A program made the position numbers and the translations under genes. Of a stretch of DNA of 59,217 nt, positions 12,537 through 23,645 are shown one piece after another. The notes under the pieces are model-generated. The model made no database searches, was not told where the DNA came from, and was given only the letters and a program-made list of their open reading frames with translations. The stretch covers positions 1 through 59,217 of the forward strand of contig JAZDLN010000021.1 in the NCBI GenBank assembly GCA_043801965.1. The letters are read 5' to 3'. The DNA is from Candidatus Falkowbacteria bacterium (GTDB lineage Bacteria; Patescibacteriota; Patescibacteriia; Patescibacteriales; UBA12075). How positions within the stretch are numbered: position 1 is the stretch's first letter; every line of letters begins with the position of its first letter.

Positions 12537-13586
12537 TTATAGTTCGATTATCTCTTCCCAAGGCAGTCCGGCTTTTCCGAAATGGCCGTAGCTCGCGGTC
12601 GGCCGGAAAATCGGTTTTCTTAAACCGAGCCTTTCAACAATGGCGCGCGGACGGAAATCGAATTTTCTCCTGACCACGTCCTTGAGGCTCTTACCGTCTT
12701 CGTCCATGGCCTCTACCATCAAAGGCTCGGCGTGTCCTATGGCGTAAGCGACCGAGACTAGGCATTTATCGGCTAGGCCGGCAGCCACGATGTTTTTCGC
12801 CGCGAAGCGGGCCATGTAAGCGGCCGAGCGATCGACCTTGGTCGCGTCCTTGCCGGAAAAAGCGCCGCCGCCGTGCGGAATGAGCCCGCCGTAGGTATCG
12901 ACCATGATCTTTCTGCCGGTAAGCCCCGTATCAGCCGCGAAACCGCCCAAAAAGAATTTCCCGGTCGGATTTACGAAAACCTCCACGCCGGATAAATTGT
13001 TGATTACCGGCGCGATAAGTTTTTCAATCAAACTCCGCCGAATCTCTTCCTGGTCGACATCTTCACCATGCTGGGTGCTTACAAGAACGTTTTTGACCCG
13101 GCCGTTATCGAGCGTTACCTGCGCTTTGCCGTCCGGCTTAAGCCAGCTTAGCTCCCCGCTTTTTCGGAGTTCTTCCAGTCCGCGGGTTAATTTATGAGCC
13201 AAGACCACCCCCAAGGGCATGAATTCTTCTGTCTCCCTCGTGGCATAGCCGTACATTATTCCCTGATCTCCGGCTCCGCCCGTGTCGACGCCCTGGGCGA
13301 TATCCGGCGACTGCCTGACGATCTTAGTGATCACCTCCAGATCATTATCATAGCCGATGTCCTTATAAACCTGCCGGGCAATCGCGGCCGCGTCGAAATC
13401 GGCGTTGGTCGTGACCTCGCCTCCGACCAAGAGCAGGCCGTGGCCGCCGAAAGTTTCGACCGCCACCCGCGATGCCGGGTCTTCTTTTAGGCAAGCGTCC
13501 AGAATAGCGTCCGAGACCTGGTCGCAGACCTTGTCCGGATGCCCGGCCGTAACGCTTTCGACCGTGTAAAGATTTTGGTGATACAT
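12537..13586 (-). CDS. metK: S-adenosylmethionine synthetase
   Basis: ESVTAGHPDKVCDQVSDAILD, GAGDQGIMYGYA and GGGAFSGKD motifs. At 349 aa it is shorter than E. coli MetK. Confidence 0.95.
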   Translation of the reverse strand: MYHQNLYTVESVTAGHPDKVCDQVSDAILDACLKEDPASRVAVETFGGHGLLLVGGEVTTNADFDAAAIARQVYKDIGYDNDLEVITKIVRQSPDIAQGVDTGGAGDQGIMYGYATRETEEFMPLGVVLAHKLTRGLEELRKSGELSWLKPDGKAQVTLDNGRVKNVLVSTQHGEDVDQEEIRRSLIEKLIAPVINNLSGVEVFVNPTGKFFLGGFAADTGLTGRKIMVDTYGGLIPHGGGAFSGKDATKVDRSAAYMARFAAKNIVAAGLADKCLVSVAYAIGHAEPLMVEAMDEDGKSLKDVVRRKFDFRPRAIVERLGLRKPIFRPTASYGHFGKAGLPWEEIIEL

Positions 13587-13884: not shown

Positions 13885-13896
13885 TAAAACAAAAAA

Positions 13897-13997
13897 TCAT
13901 CTTTCCCCGGCATTACGGGGCTGGAAGGGGCACCTTTTCCTTTTAGGGAATGGTTGCCGGCGGGTCATAGAGCCAGTACTCCGGCCGTCCGCGATAA
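13897..13997 (-). ncRNA. SAM-I (S-box) riboswitch aptamer
   Basis: The minus strand reads UUAUC...GGAGUACUGGCUCUAUGACCCGCCGGCAACC...GGUGCCCCUUCCAGC...GAAAGAUGA. This matches the conserved S-box core segment by segment, and it lies upstream of metK. Confidence 0.85.
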
Positions 13998-14123
13998 ATC
14001 GCTTCGGGCCGTCCCGGGGTTCATCCCGGGATCGCCGCGCTCGTGATAAAATTATCAACAAGTATTCAGTTGTTATCTATATTATATAATACAAAATAAA
14101 TTAATGCAATATAAATTTTCCAT

Positions 14124-16511: not shown

Positions 16512-16585
16512 TGGTCGGGCCGGAGGGAATTGAACCCTCGCTACAAGCACCCCATGCTCGCGTACTACCGTTATACTACGGCCCG
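16512..16585 (-). tRNA. tRNA-Pro (anticodon GGG), CCA encoded
   Basis: 74 nt. Acceptor CGGGCCG/CGGCCCG, D arm GTAT..GTAC, anticodon stem CGAGC/GCTTG with loop AUGGGGU (G37), T arm GAGGG-TTCAATT-CCCTC, and A73-CCA. Confidence 0.9.
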
Positions 16586-16725
16586 TTTAATTTTATTTAT
16601 CTTTAGCTATGCTCACGCCTGCCCTGCCAATGAGCAGAGCGAATGTGGCGGGGTACTACTTGCCTCGCCGAAGTCCCGACGCTTCGGGACGTAGGCGGGC
16701 CGTTATACTACGGCCCGTTATTCTC
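16586..16725 (-). other. Structured 5' leader of tRNA-Pro: acceptor-mimic minihelix plus two GC-rich hairpin modules
   Basis: A 20-nt exact copy of the tRNA 5' end (16700-16719 versus 16568-16587) is closed into the perfect hairpin CGGGCCG-uaguauaa-CGGCCCG. Two modules follow, each of the form CGCC-[7-bp hairpin]-GGCG (16666-16697 and 16616-16650). Confidence 0.55.
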
Positions 16726-16731
16726 TTTCTT

Positions 16732-16760
16732 ATAATAAACAAAAAAACATAATTTGTCCA
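16732..16760 (-). promoter_or_regulatory. Putative promoter of the tRNA-Pro unit
   Basis: On the minus strand, TGGACA-17 nt-TATTAT, placing the start a few nt before the minihelix. Confidence 0.5.
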
Positions 16761-16765
16761 GCCAC

Positions 16766-16790
16766 ACAAAAAAATCCGGCTTTCTGCCGG
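16766..16790 (-). terminator. Second intrinsic terminator downstream of the candidate sRNA
   Basis: On the minus strand, CCGGC-agaaa-GCCGG followed by A-U7. Confidence 0.6.
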
Positions 16791-16902
16791 TTTAGCGTCA
16801 AATCCGCGTAGCTATCTGCGCAAAATCAGCTGAACCGCGAACAATGGCAATAACAAGGACTACTGATCAATAATAAACAAAACACGCAACGTAAAAATAA
16901 AA

Positions 16903-17166
16903 CAAAAAAGCTTCACCAAAGATGCCTATCCAAGAATTGGCCGTAAACAGTGGGTTCTGTTAATTTCTTAACAGTTCATTCCGGCCCAATCTCTTCAGAA
17001 GTAGTATCTTCCGAATAATGGTTGAAGCAGAACGATTTCTAGCCCTTGTCTCCTACCCCGGATTCCACGGAAACCGGAGAAACGGAAAAGCCATTCTTTA
17101 CAATTTGATCCAAATCTTGAAGTTGGCTTGGTGAAGCCTTTTCAGATGACAAATATTTTTATCATC
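16903..17166 (-). ncRNA. Candidate novel structured sRNA (unassigned family)
   Basis: It is bounded by an extended -10 promoter at 17173-17200 and by a 10-bp closing helix (GCTTCACCAA/TTGGTGAAGC) followed by U6. The interior has further co-axial pairings (CAAGATTTGG/CCAATTCTTG, GTAAA/TTTAC) and a perfect 7-bp hairpin CTGTTAA-gaaa-TTAACAG. No ORF. Confidence 0.5.
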
Positions 17167-17172
17167 AATAAT

Positions 17173-17200
17173 ATTATAACAAACCCGGATTAAAAATCAA
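17173..17200 (-). promoter_or_regulatory. Promoter of the candidate sRNA
   Basis: On the minus strand, TTGATT-16 nt-(TGt)TATAAT, i.e. an extended -10. Confidence 0.6.
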
Positions 17201-17370: not shown

Positions 17371-17488
17371 TATCTAAAGTTATGAATTTTTGACCTTTGA
17401 CAATAAACATAATTACACTAAAAGAAAGGCTAAATTTTTAATCGGCATTATGGCTAAATCGGCAGCTAAAACAAAAGGAGAAAAAAAC
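17341..17488 (+). repeat. Conserved promoter/5' leader, copy A (pairs with 20560-20708)
   Basis: By eye about nine in ten positions match copy B, including a 45/45 identical block at 17363-17407. Similarity stops abruptly at the ATG. Confidence 0.8.
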
Positions 17489-20418
17489 ATGGCAGACGAT
17501 CATGATTTTAAAACCGGCCAAACTGTTCACGGTTTTCTGGTCAAAGAAGTCCGTCCGATACCGGGCCTTGAAACCACCGCCATCGTTCTCACACACGCCG
17601 CTACCGGGGCCAGATACCTTCATCTGGCCAATAAAGATTCGGAGAACGCTTTCGGGATCGGCTTTAAAACCATTCCCCAGGATTCTACCGGCGTGGCTCA
17701 TATCCTGGAGCACACCGTGCTTACCGGCTCAAAAAAATATCCGGTCCGGGATCCGTTCTTTTCGATGGTTAAGCGCAGTCTCAAATCTTTCATGAACGCT
17801 TTTACGGCCAACGACTGGACTTTTTACCCCTTTGCCACGCCCAACCAAAAAGACTACTATAACCTGATGAGTGTTTACCTGGACGCGGTCTTTTTTCCGA
17901 CGATTACCCGTCTTAATTTCATGCAGGAAGGGCATCGTCTGGAAATTGACGCGAACGGACGGATTACCCGCCAGGGAGTTGTTTACGGCGAAATGAAAGG
18001 CGCCATGTCGACCCCCAACCACATTGAGGCGGAGGCGATCAACCAGGCGCTATTCACCGGCAATTACCGTTTTAACTCCGGCGGCGACCCGGCCGTAATA
18101 CCCACCCTTACTCATGACGCGCTGGTCGCTTTCCATAAGCGCTTCTATCACCCGAGTAATTCCTTCATATTTTCCTACGGCAATCTGCCTTTAACCGAAA
18201 ACCTACGATTCGTAGATGGTATTTTCGAAGGTTTCGAGGCGATTGATCCGAAAACAACCGTTGCGCCCGAACCAAAACGGTCAGCGCCGATTTATGTCCA
18301 CCGGACTTATGCCGCTCCCGCCGACGAGGATCTGACGAAAAAATTCCAGGCGATCATGACCTGGATCACAGCTCCAGTGGAAGACGCCTACGAGATCATG
18401 GTCTTAAAGCTCTTAACGATAATCCTTTTGGGTAACGCCGCCTCTCCTTTAAAAAAAGCCCTGATAGACTCCGGGTTGGGGAGCGCCCTAACCCATGTTA
18501 TCGGCCTTGAAGACGGCGAATACCGGGAAGCGGTTTTTTCCTGCGGCCTTAAGGACATAAAAGAAGCGGACGCGCGCGCGGTGGAAAAAGTCATCCTGGA
18601 TACCCTTGGCGCTTTAGCAACCGAAGGTATCGACCCCGAACTCGTGGAATCCGCCATCCACCGGATGGAACTCAAACAAAAAGAGCTTAAAGATCATGGC
18701 TGGCCGCGCGGTCTGACCCTGGCGCTTAAACTGGCTGAAAGCTGGTTCCATGGCGAGAACCCCCTGGGACCGCTGGAATTTAACGTTCACATAGACCGGA
18801 TCAGGCAGGAGGTAAAAACCGGACTTCTCACCGACCGAATAAAAAAATATTTCCTTCTGAACAACAACCGGGCGCTCATTACGCTTGTTCCCGATCCGAA
18901 TAAACAGAGAAACGAGGAGGCGCGCCGGCAAAAAGAACTGGCGGAACTCGAAGAAAAATTAACCATAGCGGACAGAAAAGCTATCCGGCGCGACGCGCAA
19001 GCGCTAAAGGACCTGCAGGAAAGAACGGTAGACTTAAGCTGCCTGCCGACCCTGGAGCTAAGCGATATTCCGCCGGAAATAAAAACCATAAAGGACATGC
19101 CGCTTAAAAAAAATCCGCGCCTGACCGCCTACGAACAGCCGACTAACGGCATTCTTTATTTCATATCATATTTTGATGCCGCCGCCTTGCCGGAGAATCT
19201 GATTCCTTATGTTCCGATCTTCTCCTGGGCCCTGCCGAAAATAGGCACCAAAACGAAAAACTATGAAAAAATCGTCCGCCAGATAAGCCTAAAAACCGGC
19301 GGCGTTGGCCTGGGAGCGACCGCTCACTCTACCGCCAACGGAGCGGACGAATGCCTGCCTCTTTTAGAGCTGGGGACCAAGTGCCTGGAGAGAAATATTG
19401 AGGCGACCTTCGGAATTATCCATGAGCTTATCCATGAATTCAGCTTCTCCGACCTGAAAAGACTTAAAGTTATTCTTGAAGAAATGAGAACTGCTTACGA
19501 ATCCAGTATCCAGCAAAACGGCCACGCTTACGCGCGTTCACTGGCTTCCCGGGGACTCTCACCCGCGACCCACCTGAACGAAGAATGGGGAGGGATACAT
19601 CTTCTCCTGACCGTGAAAAAACTGCTCGCCGGCGGCGAAGAAAGTTTGAAAAAATTAGCTGTTGATCTGGAAAAAATCGGGCATATCCTGTTTACCGGAA
19701 AAAACTGCCAGATCGCCCTGATCGCGACTAAGCCGCTTTTGAATAAAGCGGCAGCCGCGGCCGGACAACTGCTTGATTCTTTGCCGACCTTAACGAACCC
19801 CCGCTCCGATCACGGAATTTCAGATCGAGCTATAAAAATGACGGTTGGAGCACGACCGGTGACGCATCTTATGTCGCCCGAACATGCAAAACCGCCACCT
19901 ACAAAGACAAGGATGCCCCCGTCTTAGAGGTTATTTCCAAGCTTATCGGACGAAATTTCGTGCATCGCGAGGTTCGTGAAAAAGGCGGCGCCTACGGCGG
20001 CTATGCCACTTATTTCTCCCTATCCGGTATCTTCGGACTATCGTCTTATCGCGACCCTCACATAATAAACACACTGAAAACATTCGACCGGACCTTGCCG
20101 TGGCTTCTCGGCGGCGACTTTACCGATGAGGATATCAAAGAAGCGATCCTTCAGGTCTGCGCCGATATCGGAAAACCGTTACCGCCCGACAATACCGCGG
20201 CCAAACAATTCCTCCGCAAAATAATCGGACTTTCCGATCGCGACCGCCGGCTCTTCAAATCCAGGCTTCTTAAGGTTAACCGCCAAAAAATAATGCGGGC
20301 GGCCAAAAAATTGGCCGCGGACATGGCCAAAAGTTCAGTGGCCGTGATCTCGTATGACGGCAAGTTAAAATCAACCAATGAAAAAATGGATAATCCTCTG
20401 GATATCCGCAAAATTTAA
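17489..20418 (+). pseudogene. M16C (PreP/insulinase-like) metallopeptidase paralog A, frame-broken near a C5 tract
   Basis: HILEH (HxxEH) motif and colinear homology to paralog B. Homology moves from the frame of ORF 17390-19927 to the frame of ORF 19960-20418 around 19798-19813 (NFRS..GWST..KDAP..EKGGAYGG continues in the other frame). One extra C in CCCCC at 19798-19802 would restore a single ORF. Confidence 0.75.
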
Positions 20419-20589: not shown

Positions 20590-20708
20590 TATCTAAAGTT
20601 ATGAATTTTTGACCTTTGACAATAAATCAATTACAATAAAGAAAGGCTAAGTTTTTAATCGGTTTTATGGCTAAATCGGCAACCAAAACCAAGCGAGGAG
20701 AAAAAACA
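20560..20708 (+). repeat. Conserved promoter/5' leader, copy B
   Basis: See copy A. The identical 45-nt block is at 20582-20626. Confidence 0.8.
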
Positions 20709-23645
20709 ATGAAGGATAAAAACAATTCGGAGCTTAGAGAGGGCGCGGAATTATTCGGCTACCGGGTAAAACGCGCCGCCGCCCTGCCCGATATCGCTTC
20801 CGTATTTTACGAACTAGAGCACGTGGCCACGGGCGCGCAACATATCCACATAAGCAACCAGGATAAAGAAAACGCTTTCAGCGTCCTATTTAAAACCGTG
20901 CCCGGCGACTCTACCGGCGTGGCGCATATCCTTGAACACACCGCTCTTTGCGGTTCGGAATCATATCCGGTCCGCGACCCGTTTTTTTCGATGATGAAGC
21001 GCAGTTTAAGCACTTTCATGAATGCCTTTACCGCTTCCGATTGGACGAGCTATCCCTTTGCCACTCAAAACACGAAAGACTTTTATAATCTCCTCGGCGT
21101 TTATCTTGACGCGGCTTTCTTCCCCCGTCTGGAAGAATTGAACTTCCGGCAGGAGGGCTGGCGCTACGAAATCGAGAAAAATCCGGACACCGGCGCTGAA
21201 GAGCTTGTTTACAAAGGCATAGTCTATAACGAAATGAAAGGCGCTATGTCGTCTCCCTTAAACGTTATGTACCGCTCACTGATGAATGCCCTTTATCCGG
21301 ATACGACCTACGGACACAATTCCGGCGGCGACCCCGAAGATATCCCGTCTTTGACGTATGAACAGTTTAAAGAATTCCACCGCCGCCATTACCACCCCTC
21401 GAACGCTTTCTTCTTTACTTACGGCAACCTGCCCTTGTCCAGCCACCTGAAGGTCATCAGCGAAAAGGTAATGGGCCGTTTCACGAAAATAGACACGCAT
21501 ACCGAAGTGCCTAACCAACCACGCTGGAACCAGCCGAAAAAAACGACTTACCGCTACCCCACGAACGAAAACCCGGAAAAAAAGAACCAGGCGTGCGTAG
21601 CCTGGCTGACGGCCGACATAAAGGACGTTTTTGAGGTTTTAACGCTCAAAGTCCTGGAGCAGATCCTCCTCGGCAATGACGCGGCCCCTCTGCGCCGCGC
21701 CCTGATCGAGTCGAATTTAGGCTCGACCCTGTCCGACGCTTCCGGCTATAACTGCGAAAACCGCGACACTATGTTCGCCGCCGGCCTGAAAGATGTTAAC
21801 GCGGCGACGGCGCCGGAAATCGAAAAATTAATCTTTTCAACATTGGAAAATCTGGCGACTAACGGCATCGACCCGGAACTGATTGAATCGGCGATCCACC
21901 AGATAGAATTCCAGGCCAAGGAGATAGTCAACGAACCCTATCCCTACGGTCTGAAATTATTCCTGGATTCGGCCGGATGTTGGATTCATGGCGGCGACCC
22001 GCTCCATGCCCTAAACGTAAAAACCGCTTTTGAACAATTGCGCGGCCTTATCGGTCGTGGCGCCTATCTGGAAAAGAAGATCAGGGAATACTTCGTGGAT
22101 AACCGCCATCGCGTGCTGTTTACGCTCAAAGCGGATACGGCCATGCAGGCCGAGTTAGAACAAAAAGAAAAAACACGCTTAGCCGCGATCAAGGCTGAGT
22201 TGGATTCCGCGGAAATAAAAAAAATCAAGGCTATCGCCGCGGCACTCGAAAAATTGCAGGAATCAAAAGAAAACCTGGACGTATTACCGACCCTGGAGCG
22301 AGCGGATATACCGCCGACCGTTATCAGCGTAAAAGCAGCCATCAAAAACGGGCGCATCAGCCTGTACAGACAACCCACCGCCGGCATTGAATATTTTACC
22401 GCTGCCGCGGGTCTAAGCGGGTTGCCGGAAAAGCTCCTGCCCTTGGTGCCGTTTTTCTGCTTCGCTTATCCTTTAATGGGGACAAAGCGGCGGGATTACG
22501 CGGCCTTGATGCGCGATATCGACCGTTATACCGGCGATATCAGCCTGAGTCCGCACGTCCATACTAAATACGGCGGCACCAGAACGACTCTGCCTTTTAT
22601 TTCTTTTTCCGGCAAATGTTTAAGCCGCAACAGAGAAAAAATGCTCGCCTTGATCGAAGAATTGACTCACGAAACGAGTTTTAACAACCTTAATCATCTG
22701 GCTAACACGCTTAACAGATTCAAAGCCTCAGAGGAGTCGCGGATCGTCCAAAACGGCCATCGCCTGGCAATGTCTTTAGCTTCCAGAAATTTTTCTAAAA
22801 CTAATTTCCTGAAAGAATCGTGGGACGGAATTCATCAGTTCGAATTCCTGAAGGGCTTGTCTCAGGACCTGAGCCATGAAAAGCTCCAAACCTTGGCCGG
22901 CGACCTGGAATTAATCAAAAATACCGTTTTAAAACCGGCTAGCCTGAAAATGGCTTTCGTGAGCGAAAACCCGGACAAACGGCTGCTTAGCTTCCTGATC
23001 GGCAAAGAAATGGACAAGGTCGATAATTTCCGGTCCCCCAAGATAACGTTAACCGATGAGGTTATCCGTGAAGGCTGGTCAACCGCCACCGCCGTATCGT
23101 TCGTGGCCCAAACCTTCAAGACCGTCAAATACGGCCACAAAGACGCTCCGGCGCTCGCGGTCATCGCCGAACTTATGCGCAACGAATATCTGCACCGGGA
23201 GCTCAGGGAAAAAGGCGGCGCTTACGGCGGATTTGCCAATTACAATCCCGAAAACGGGATATTCGCCTATGCTTCGTACCGGGATCCGCACATCATCAAC
23301 ACCCTTAATGTTTACGAGCAGGCGGATAAATATATCAGGTCCGGAAACTACACCGACGAAAACGTCAAAGAAGCGATCCTTATGGTCTGTGCCGAATTAG
23401 ATAAACCGGATCCTCCGGGACCGGCTTCGGAGCTCGCTTTTTACCGGGAACTTATCCAGGCTACCGACGATATGCGCCAGGCTTTCAAAGCCGGCCTGAT
23501 CCGGCTGCGGCGCGACGATATTATGAGAACGGCCAAAAAATATTTTAACGCACCCGACAAAACCACCGCCGTAATTTCGAACATAGACAAACTGAACGAA
23601 GCCAACAAAAGGCTAAAAAATCCGCTTACGCTCCATAAAATTTAA
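20709..23645 (+). CDS. M16C (PreP/insulinase-like) metallopeptidase paralog B, intact
   Basis: About 978 aa from ATG 20709, with GAGGAG upstream. HILEH zinc motif, conserved VRDPFFSMMKRSL..FMNAFT, and C-terminal REKGGAYGG. Confidence 0.85.
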   Translation: MKDKNNSELREGAELFGYRVKRAAALPDIASVFYELEHVATGAQHIHISNQDKENAFSVLFKTVPGDSTGVAHILEHTALCGSESYPVRDPFFSMMKRSLSTFMNAFTASDWTSYPFATQNTKDFYNLLGVYLDAAFFPRLEELNFRQEGWRYEIEKNPDTGAEELVYKGIVYNEMKGAMSSPLNVMYRSLMNALYPDTTYGHNSGGDPEDIPSLTYEQFKEFHRRHYHPSNAFFFTYGNLPLSSHLKVISEKVMGRFTKIDTHTEVPNQPRWNQPKKTTYRYPTNENPEKKNQACVAWLTADIKDVFEVLTLKVLEQILLGNDAAPLRRALIESNLGSTLSDASGYNCENRDTMFAAGLKDVNAATAPEIEKLIFSTLENLATNGIDPELIESAIHQIEFQAKEIVNEPYPYGLKLFLDSAGCWIHGGDPLHALNVKTAFEQLRGLIGRGAYLEKKIREYFVDNRHRVLFTLKADTAMQAELEQKEKTRLAAIKAELDSAEIKKIKAIAAALEKLQESKENLDVLPTLERADIPPTVISVKAAIKNGRISLYRQPTAGIEYFTAAAGLSGLPEKLLPLVPFFCFAYPLMGTKRRDYAALMRDIDRYTGDISLSPHVHTKYGGTRTTLPFISFSGKCLSRNREKMLALIEELTHETSFNNLNHLANTLNRFKASEESRIVQNGHRLAMSLASRNFSKTNFLKESWDGIHQFEFLKGLSQDLSHEKLQTLAGDLELIKNTVLKPASLKMAFVSENPDKRLLSFLIGKEMDKVDNFRSPKITLTDEVIREGWSTATAVSFVAQTFKTVKYGHKDAPALAVIAELMRNEYLHRELREKGGAYGGFANYNPENGIFAYASYRDPHIINTLNVYEQADKYIRSGNYTDENVKEAILMVCAELDKPDPPGPASELAFYRELIQATDDMRQAFKAGLIRLRRDDIMRTAKKYFNAPDKTTAVISNIDKLNEANKRLKNPLTLHKI

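Follow-up and report, generated by a model that had tools for sequence, protein, structure and literature searches.

A candidate family of structured non-coding RNAs linked to tRNA-Pro(GGG) in Candidatus Falkowbacteria and related Patescibacteria

Here, we examine a stretch of 59,217 nt from a Candidatus Falkowbacteria bacterium (contig JAZDLN010000021.1, assembly GCA_043801965.1; hereafter the window), in which an earlier note, made from the letters alone, had pointed to a stand-alone structured RNA gene of unassigned family, enclosed by a promoter and a terminator. As predicted from its signals, fold and relatives, the minus strand of the window carries a genuine gene for a folded non-coding RNA of approximately 270 nt; the existence of homologs, the asymmetry between the strands and the covariation within helices all back the view that it stands on its own. 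By comparison with known models, this RNA founds a family absent from Rfam 15. Its linkage to the gene for tRNA-Pro(GGG) is new relative to the earlier note. The reading that we favour, with moderate confidence, is that of a new stable RNA acting in trans, which would ancestrally have been the first cistron of a unit shared with tRNA-Pro(GGG), would be released by RNase P, and would in this genome be uncoupled from the tRNA by a terminator of its own.

The RNA extends beyond the window's genome. BLASTN recovered it in 22 of 60 relatives (23 of 61 genomes when the window's own is counted), and a covariance model (R1, built from a 17-sequence alignment, A1, that already shows compensatory changes) recovered it in 61 of the 151 sampled genomes of the order, in one copy each; wherever a second match was listed alongside the first, the two overlapped on opposite strands. 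Forward matches of R1 ranged from 62 to 223 bits and reverse ones did not exceed 46 bits, the window's RNA itself (16894-17148) scoring 210.6 bits forward and 32 bits in reverse, and this gap fixes the strand. All model searches used R1, which was built without one of the helices described below (P6), and distant members were missed. The counts per family were uneven (e.g., 15/18, 7/7 and 12/18, also 0/18 and 0/9), partly because the reach of R1 is limited. A pattern scan of named genomes returned 94 stretches, about 34 of which would be expected by chance (our own estimate); R1 was run on 20 of the 80 loci listed, the other 60 coming mostly from records titled outside the candidate phyla radiation, and 14 of the 20 carry the RNA, a Sungbacteria record from the same scan being without an R1 match. 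The records of carriers are titled Candidatus Falkowbacteria, Candidatus Parcubacteria, Candidatus Moraniibacteriota, Patescibacteria group or simply 'bacterium', which agrees with the earlier note's surmise of an organism from the candidate phyla radiation.

The covariation that the note had named as decisive is present. In alignment A4, which holds 49 of the 56 matched loci (L019, L061, L121, L168, L170, L173 and L174 were omitted owing to a 400-column limit), 91.3% of the cells at the 55 modelled pairs can pair, as compared with 70.7% after shuffling, and 49 of these pairs show changes on both sides. The covariation score reached 0.606 against 0.218 in the shuffled alignments, a value that none of 500 shuffles attained, and slid registers yielded scores of at most 0.167.

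Comparison with known RNA families was negative throughout. A scan of the whole window with Rfam 15 at the gathering thresholds returned only a tRNA-Pro and a SAM riboswitch, and at E <= 10 no family matched the window's RNA region or any of 26 relatives (20 of 55 homolog loci and 6 out-of-order ones); weak SpF41 matches fall on the tRNA and not on the RNA. No description of such an RNA was found in the literature searched, a scope that left subscription journals and supplementary motif lists outside. The genome (1.76 Mb in 52 contigs, 95.5% complete) has its tmRNA (131.6 bits) and a class A RNase P RNA (206.7 bits) on other contigs, and ARAGORN found no tmRNA in the window; the note's opinion that the element is neither of the two is thus borne out. 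Of the housekeeping genes ffs, ssrS and rnpB, the absence of which the note had proposed to check, ffs and ssrS were not found at E <= 10 and rnpB is present.

The overall anatomy of the predicted RNA is that of a 5' hairpin (P0), a long irregular rod (P1, P1b and P2) and a branched junction core, the last consisting of a P3 arm with a conserved internal loop and of a 3-bp helix (P6) which encloses the variable hairpins P4 and P5. The closing helix that had been read from the letters (17137-17128 with 16919-16910) exists and grows to 17 pairs (17145-17129/16918-16902). In the 49-sequence alignment all 17 pairs of P1 vary and 16 of them do so with changes on both sides; in one family the A-tract and U-tract of P1 are swapped for another complementary sequence that contains no U run. 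This substitution makes the U-tract a component of the helix and not a terminator everywhere. P1b reads GCUnAU/AUnAGC in relatives, with compensating changes (read by eye, without a formal count). The first of the stacked pairings proposed earlier corresponds to P2 (CAAGAUUUGG/CCAAUUCUUG, 17119-17110 with 16940-16931), the middle of which contains one or two U.U mismatches, the base facing the central U being U, A or G and never C; its outer pairs covary (CG in 38 sequences, UA in 7). Taken together the rod comprises about 30 pairs, of which those of P1 and P2 are backed by covariation. At the position of P0 a hairpin recurs with unrelated sequences, its minimum free energy (MFE) lying in the lowest 5% of shuffles for 23 of 49 homologs.

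Within the core, all 12 pairs of P3 show changes on both sides, and its internal loop occurs in the variants GUU/UA and UAAA/UGC. P6 was overlooked by RNAalifold and recovered by an all-against-all covariation scan: 95-96% of its cells are paired, and in some species it covaries to GGAU/AUCC and GAG/CUC. P4, of which some relatives have a short form, changes on both sides at 9 of 9 counted pairs; the perfect hairpin CTGTTAA-GAAA-TTAACAG, which lies at 16974-16957 as described, is P5 and does so at 4 of 4. The two remaining pairings of the note fared less well: the letters of GTAAA/TTTAC are present in the window without being conserved in relatives, and those of TGG/CCA are likewise present, with the CCA belonging instead to the conserved P6, where it faces the GGG at 17045-17043. 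We also considered, and retain as no more than a lead, an alternative helix between AAUGGC (17095-17090) and GCCAAU (16941-16936), which is weakly supported by the alignment (89.1% of cells paired versus 87.3% after shuffling, with one compensatory event).

As for the boundaries, the promoter that had been called in the window (TTGATT, 16 nt, TATAAT, with a TG extension; 17200..17173, minus strand) is present with 10 of 12 consensus matches and would place the start of transcription at about 17166-17164. In many homologs, the tRNA-fused ones among them, TGnTAnAAT-like boxes occur 17-25 nt ahead of the model start (a simple scan of our own, run without a shuffle control). The segment 17165-16895 (271 nt) folds with an MFE of -89.9 kcal/mol, as compared with -63.4 +/- 5.0 kcal/mol for 200 dinucleotide shuffles (z -5.25), none of which folds as stably. 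The U6-G-U4 run follows the closing helix directly, at 16909-16899, as had been reported. This U-tract of P1 may double as the tail of an intrinsic terminator; however, P1 closes a 228-nt domain, the terminator scan made no call here, and the run pairs with the 5' A-tract. What reads as a 'terminator' amounts in many relatives merely to the outer part of the closing helix, with the tRNA within about 12 nt. The second terminator was recovered by the signal scan as a hairpin (16790-16776) followed by a T run; it sits in a genus-specific insert between RNA and tRNA, a spacer that is absent from most relatives. The approximately 100 nt between the U-tract and this second terminator (16791-16893, minus strand) contain no open reading frame (ORF) of >= 30 aa and no Rfam match. 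The description of the stretch as free of ORFs is loosely true, trivial ones of 37-38 aa overlapping the RNA region.

Table 1. Predicted features of the RNA gene and of the downstream tRNA-Pro(GGG) region in the window
Feature	Position	Strand	Basis
Whole predicted RNA, ~268 nt, predicted start to U-tract end	16899..17166	-	ends predicted
Extended -10 sigma-70-type promoter, TTGATT/16 nt/TG-n-TATAAT	17173..17200	-	consensus scan
P0, 5'-terminal hairpin, 8 pairs, immediately before P1	17146..17165	-	MFE fold
P1 5' strand, A-tract + GGCUUCACCA, partner 16902-16918	17129..17145	-	fold, covariation
P1b 5' strand, short helix between P1 and P2, pairs with 16924-16926	17125..17127	-	MFE
P2 5' strand, nearly invariant, pairs with 16931-16940	17110..17119	-	covariation
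J2/3, conserved single-stranded junction AUCAAA ... AAUGGC, ~22 nt	17088..17109	-	conservation
P3 arm: 4-bp base, conserved internal loop, upper helix with YNNG-type tetraloop	17050..17087	-	covariation
P6 5' strand GGG, partner CCC 16952-16954	17043..17045	-	all-pairs covariation scan
P4, long hairpin, variable in length and sequence	16979..17033	-	covariation
P5, perfect 7-bp hairpin with GAAA loop	16957..16974	-	sequence, covariation
P6 3' strand, inside conserved motif AGAACC-Y-AUUG	16952..16954	-	covariation
P2 3' strand, CCAAUUCUUG	16931..16940	-	covariation
P1 3' strand, UGGUGAAGC + U-tract	16902..16918	-	fold, covariation
Second terminator-like hairpin + T run, ~110 nt downstream of the RNA	16766..16790	-	scan
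Promoter-like site TGGACA/17 nt/TATTAT, 10/12	16732..16760	-	consensus match only
Partial copy of the tRNA-Pro 5' end, 7-bp acceptor-stem-like hairpin	16694..16719	-	sequence
tRNA-Pro(GGG), encoded CCA end, 59.9 bits	16512..16585	-	ARAGORN; Rfam match 16515-16585

The genomic surroundings were assessed in 49 loci (48 homolog loci and the window), the tRNAs of which were typed by ARAGORN. In 27 of them the RNA is followed, in the same orientation, by the gene for tRNA-Pro(GGG); three have this gene nearby on the opposite strand, and in 19 it is missing from the fetched stretch, which in at least four cases ends within 350 nt of the RNA. One genus has four loci with no tRNA-Pro nearby. The gap between RNA and tRNA ranges from -6 to 1085 nt across relatives. 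In 10 of the loci the first base of the tRNA falls between -6 and +5 nt relative to the end of the model (i.e. some 10-12 nt after P1), a spacing that leaves no room for a separate tRNA promoter. In the window's genus an insert of about 300 nt, which contains the second terminator-like site, a promoter-like site and a partial copy of the tRNA 5' end, lies between the two genes, and this promoter-like site could drive tRNA-Pro separately in this genome.

The neighbourhood on the other side is also recurrent. Of 55 loci, 18 have comEC upstream of the RNA in the same orientation and 7 have ndk there, preceded in 6 of these by the metallo-beta-lactamase part of comEC; counted together, comEC with or without ndk stands directly upstream in 25 of the 55 (e.g., L037:2-1423, L171:2-1501). 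The window has divergent M16 peptidase genes there instead of comEC/ndk, and one family carries a DivIC-type septum gene downstream.

Two observations concern the tRNA itself. The copy of its 5' end in the window measures 18 nt and sits about 130 nt upstream of the intact gene, and similar partial copies or minihelices precede tRNA-Pro(GGG) in several unrelated genomes (L055, L175, L049, L193, L189, L195 and L198); possible origins include duplications, scars of integration and signals for processing. In 30 loci the anticodon loop of tRNA-Pro(GGG) reads either AUGGGGU (19) or CUGGGGG (11), positions 32 and 38 varying together.

We reason that the ancestral arrangement may have been a two-gene stable-RNA operon, in which the RNA preceded tRNA-Pro(GGG) behind an extended -10 promoter of its own. 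RNase P, by cutting at the 5' end of the tRNA, would set the 3' end of the RNA, as the spacing of the two genes suggests. In the window's genus, where the insert parts the RNA from the tRNA, the U-tract after P1 would take over as the terminator. The rod and P0 would shield the RNA ends, and the near-invariant P2, with its U.U mismatches, would together with the junction strands form a probable platform for a protein or another RNA. Conservation of the RNA remains good in loci without coupling to the tRNA (through opposite strands, through the lack of tRNA-Pro nearby, through gaps of up to 1085 nt or, in the window, through an intervening terminator and promoter), which favours and suggests an action in trans.

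An independent view came from a search that started from the tRNA; run on 60 genomes of the class, it yielded 12 tRNA-Pro(GGG) loci of other orders and one of the same order (L191). In four of the other-order loci (L188, L189, L190 and L199) the tRNA is immediately preceded by a structured RNA of 170-278 nt that is closed by a rod, and L195 may be a fifth. Three of the four have in common the sequence of P1, a P2-like helix with ACAAC after it, and the architecture of P3. R1 scored the other-order candidates at 19.4, 10.2 and 9.0 bits. Judged from these likenesses, the family is probably wider than the order. In six loci of this search the upstream sequence is coding-like (by eye, without ORF calling). 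One other-order locus has ndk upstream (L195:2429-3052), and in two the tRNA is followed by an M50 peptidase (Pfam, L189) and by a ribosomal protein S12-like ORF (by eye).

Several points weigh against the proposed trans-acting, tRNA-coupled RNA and against the strength of the family evidence. R1 had no match in 147 genomes of other orders, and homology across orders thus rests on weak scores, shared motifs and position. In L191, ndk abuts tRNA-Pro(GGG) with no RNA between them (by eye), which means that the RNA is dispensable. Alignment A4 was fitted to the model, so that the modelled pairs are favoured in the figures given above, and its shuffle control is inflated by kinship among the sequences. 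The case for an action in trans is an argument from conservation, and the tight linkage to one tRNA might mean a role in cis instead.

On a further-reaching reading, the unit formed by the RNA and tRNA-Pro(GGG) in Parcubacteria-type members of the candidate phyla radiation (CPR) would be a module that controls, chaperones or senses the proline tRNA; no comparable bacterial arrangement of RNA and tRNA was described in the sources searched. That the RNA represents a new ribonucleoprotein or regulatory RNA class coupled to tRNA-Pro(GGG), or a housekeeping substitute where the signal recognition particle (SRP) RNA and 6S RNA were not found, we offer as a tentative possibility on the unlikely side. 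The CPR (Patescibacteria) hold a large share of bacterial diversity in reduced genomes whose non-coding RNAs are almost unexplored, and here an RNA of 250-280 nt, the core of which is strongly conserved, is maintained as a single copy throughout an order and probably beyond it, in a lineage where neither SRP (protein or RNA) nor 6S RNA was detected. At minimum it is a new Rfam-grade family that would improve the annotation of CPR genomes, and at best it would point to a new RNA-protein machine or a new mode of tRNA control. Its position before tRNA-Pro(GGG) offers a testable handle, through co-transcription, release by RNase P and functional coupling.

The alternative that survives best, and which we regard as unlikely, is that of a very divergent 6S-like RNA (ssrS, RF00013), an open-promoter mimic that would bind the RNA polymerase holoenzyme. 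In such a mapping the downstream duplex would correspond to the rod, the upstream duplex to the P3 arm and the template side of the bubble to J2/3, and the pairing of AAUGGC with GCCAAU, which overlaps the 3' strand of P2, would act as the release switch following synthesis of a product RNA. The role appears vacant, as no 6S RNA was detected at E <= 10 in the genome, nor any in 41 relatives; given that the 6S model matched only 5 control genomes, this non-detection says little. Like 6S RNA, the window's RNA is single-copy and dispensable, has a long irregular closing stem formed by its two ends, and carries beside it a conserved single strand (J2/3, about 22 nt) with a possible alternative pairing; moreover the out-of-order candidate L189, at 170 nt, has a simpler and more 6S-like outline. 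Against this stand the absence of any RF00013 match at E <= 10 on the window, on 20 homolog loci and on 6 out-of-order loci, and the architecture itself: at 255-280 nt the RNA has a branched junction, in which covariation supports P3 and a P6 enclosing P4 and P5, whereas 6S RNA has one bubble with a helix on either side. With only about 15 pairs the apical arm is short, the strong sequence conservation of P2 is unlike 6S RNA, and the linkage to tRNA-Pro(GGG) would be left unexplained. The view of the earlier note that the element is not 6S RNA agrees with the unmatched model and the branched core.

Next in order, and more doubtful, comes a cis-acting leader of tRNA-Pro(GGG), i.e. an attenuator or processing module that would sense this tRNA or a metabolite and control either read-through at P1 and the U-tract or maturation by RNase P. 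The maintenance of the RNA directly upstream of one tRNA across the order and beyond speaks for it, as does the placement of the U-tract or the P1 end within about 12 nt of the tRNA in 10 loci. A conserved CCYAU is complementary to anticodon-loop positions 32-36, and the GGG of P6 is identical in sequence to the anticodon. Against these likenesses stands the way in which the sequences vary: 11 of 30 tRNAs have C32 and yet the corresponding RNA position keeps its U, with no covariation with the tRNA; the specifier-like CCY is paired inside P6 and does not covary with the tRNA loop; P6 covaries internally (GGAU/AUCC, GAG/CUC) while the anticodon stays GGG; and the UGGU of P1 changes in step with its partner in that helix, without being fixed to the ACCA end of the tRNA. 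One family is without any U-tract, and the RNA is kept where the tRNA is on the opposite strand, distant or behind a promoter of its own.

T-box leaders (RF00230) are the known system closest to such a role, resembling the window's RNA in size, in the tie to one tRNA species and in a 3' helix followed by a U run. They were rejected: no match was obtained at E <= 10 on the window's RNA region or on 20 homolog loci, the anticodon-loop pairing shows no covariation, and UGGU is not fixed. Unlike a T-box, the window's RNA precedes a tRNA gene and not a synthetase or transporter gene, has ends closed by a rod and no T-box sequence, and its codon-like motif and UGGU do not covary with the tRNA.

We deem it very unlikely that RNase P RNA is represented here by a paralog or a reduced relative, or that the RNA is some other ribozyme that would act on the adjacent tRNA. 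The topology resembles that of the catalytic domain of class A RNase P RNA (RF00010) in the succession of P1, P2, a hairpin and a short long-range helix that surrounds more hairpins, AGAACC resembles part of the consensus ACAGAAnCCGGCUUA, and a tRNA is adjacent. However, the region is unmatched by RNase P models (RF00010, RF00011) at E <= 10, reading revealed no conserved blocks beyond AGAACC (e.g., GAGGAAAGUCC, GGUAA) and no specificity domain, and the ACAG found here belongs, as the 3' strand, to the variable hairpin P5. The genome has a complete class A RNase P RNA of 415 nt elsewhere, and the reading was rejected after comparison with the alignment of that RNA.

A divergent SRP RNA, of the 4.5S or the large type (RF00169, RF01854), is close to refuted. 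In its favour, no small or large SRP RNA was detected in the genome at E <= 10, nor any SRP RNA in 61 relatives or in a 121-genome sample of the phylum, and the window's RNA has a size near that of the large type, with a paired-end rod and a structured head. Helix 8 of SRP RNA has a conserved GNRA tetraloop with symmetric and asymmetric loops. The apical loops of P3, P4 and P5 vary here among homologs, P3 carrying YNNG, with no conserved GNRA-capped helix-8 motif, and RF00169 and RF01854 are unmatched, in keeping with the note's judgement. The Ffh M domain (PF02978) and the SRP54-type GTPase (PF00448; Ffh, FtsY) were not found in the genome, where tblastn with Escherichia coli Ffh gave a best E of 0.008 to an ORF that appears MinD/Mrp-like (by eye, with no Pfam run). 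Since the SRP proteins were not found, the window's RNA is not an SRP RNA in the usual sense. In 41 relatives the SRP54 model gave only weak matches, each to a short N-terminal part and one barely above the cut-off, and the Ffh M domain was found in none of the 121 genomes of the phylum sample, which suggests that the loss of SRP is very broad in the phylum. According to PMC8080830, many CPR bacteria are without two SRP subunits, and the SRP genes named in PMC10768705 were taken, by their locus-tag prefix, to be those of the host.

A chance fold or a DNA-level element, be it a miniature mobile element with its inverted repeats or a palindrome bound by a protein, has next to no probability: although 17-bp terminal inverted repeats flank about 220 bp, the G.U pairs, the compensatory changes in all inner helices and the z of -5.25 speak against it, and the strand asymmetry of about 170 bits together with the single, syntenic copy per genome excludes a DNA-level element.

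Two further likenesses were tried and rejected. A 5S-like reading of the P3 arm is limited to the motif CCG...GUAGG; no 5S match (RF00001) falls on the region, the genome has a normal 5S rRNA on another contig, and normal 5S rRNAs were found elsewhere in 5 of 5 genomes. A Y RNA was discounted, the TROVE domain (PF05731; Ro60/Rsr) being found in none of 5 RNA-carrying genomes and the neighbours being comEC, ndk and tRNA-Pro.

Among systems that resemble the preferred, tRNA-coupled RNA in organisation, non-coding RNAs are released by tRNA processing in MALAT1/mascRNA, in plant tRNA-snoRNA units and in the 4.5S precursor of E. coli, 4.5S RNA being likewise matured by RNase P. As in these, the 3' end would be set by RNase P at an adjacent tRNA or tRNA-like structure; unlike them, the present case would involve a normal, complete tRNA-Pro(GGG) in a bacterium, with the processing suggested by the spacing alone. 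Orphan lineage-specific structured RNAs, such as the raiA motif and Bacteroidales-1 RNA, are comparable in being covariation-backed, medium-sized and tied to one lineage with a conserved neighbourhood; they differ in lineage and neighbourhood and have no sequence or model similarity to the window's RNA.

Elsewhere in the window, a SAM-I riboswitch (13894-14000, minus strand, 52.6 bits) precedes metK (12537-13586, minus strand). The plus strand carries two tandem M16C/PreP-type peptidase genes (17390-19927 with 19960-20418, then 20667-23645). The first is divided between two ORFs, one of 845 aa and one of 152 aa which holds the PreP C-terminal domain in another frame; a frameshift, an assembly error or decay into a pseudogene could account for this. 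The second is intact (992 aa).

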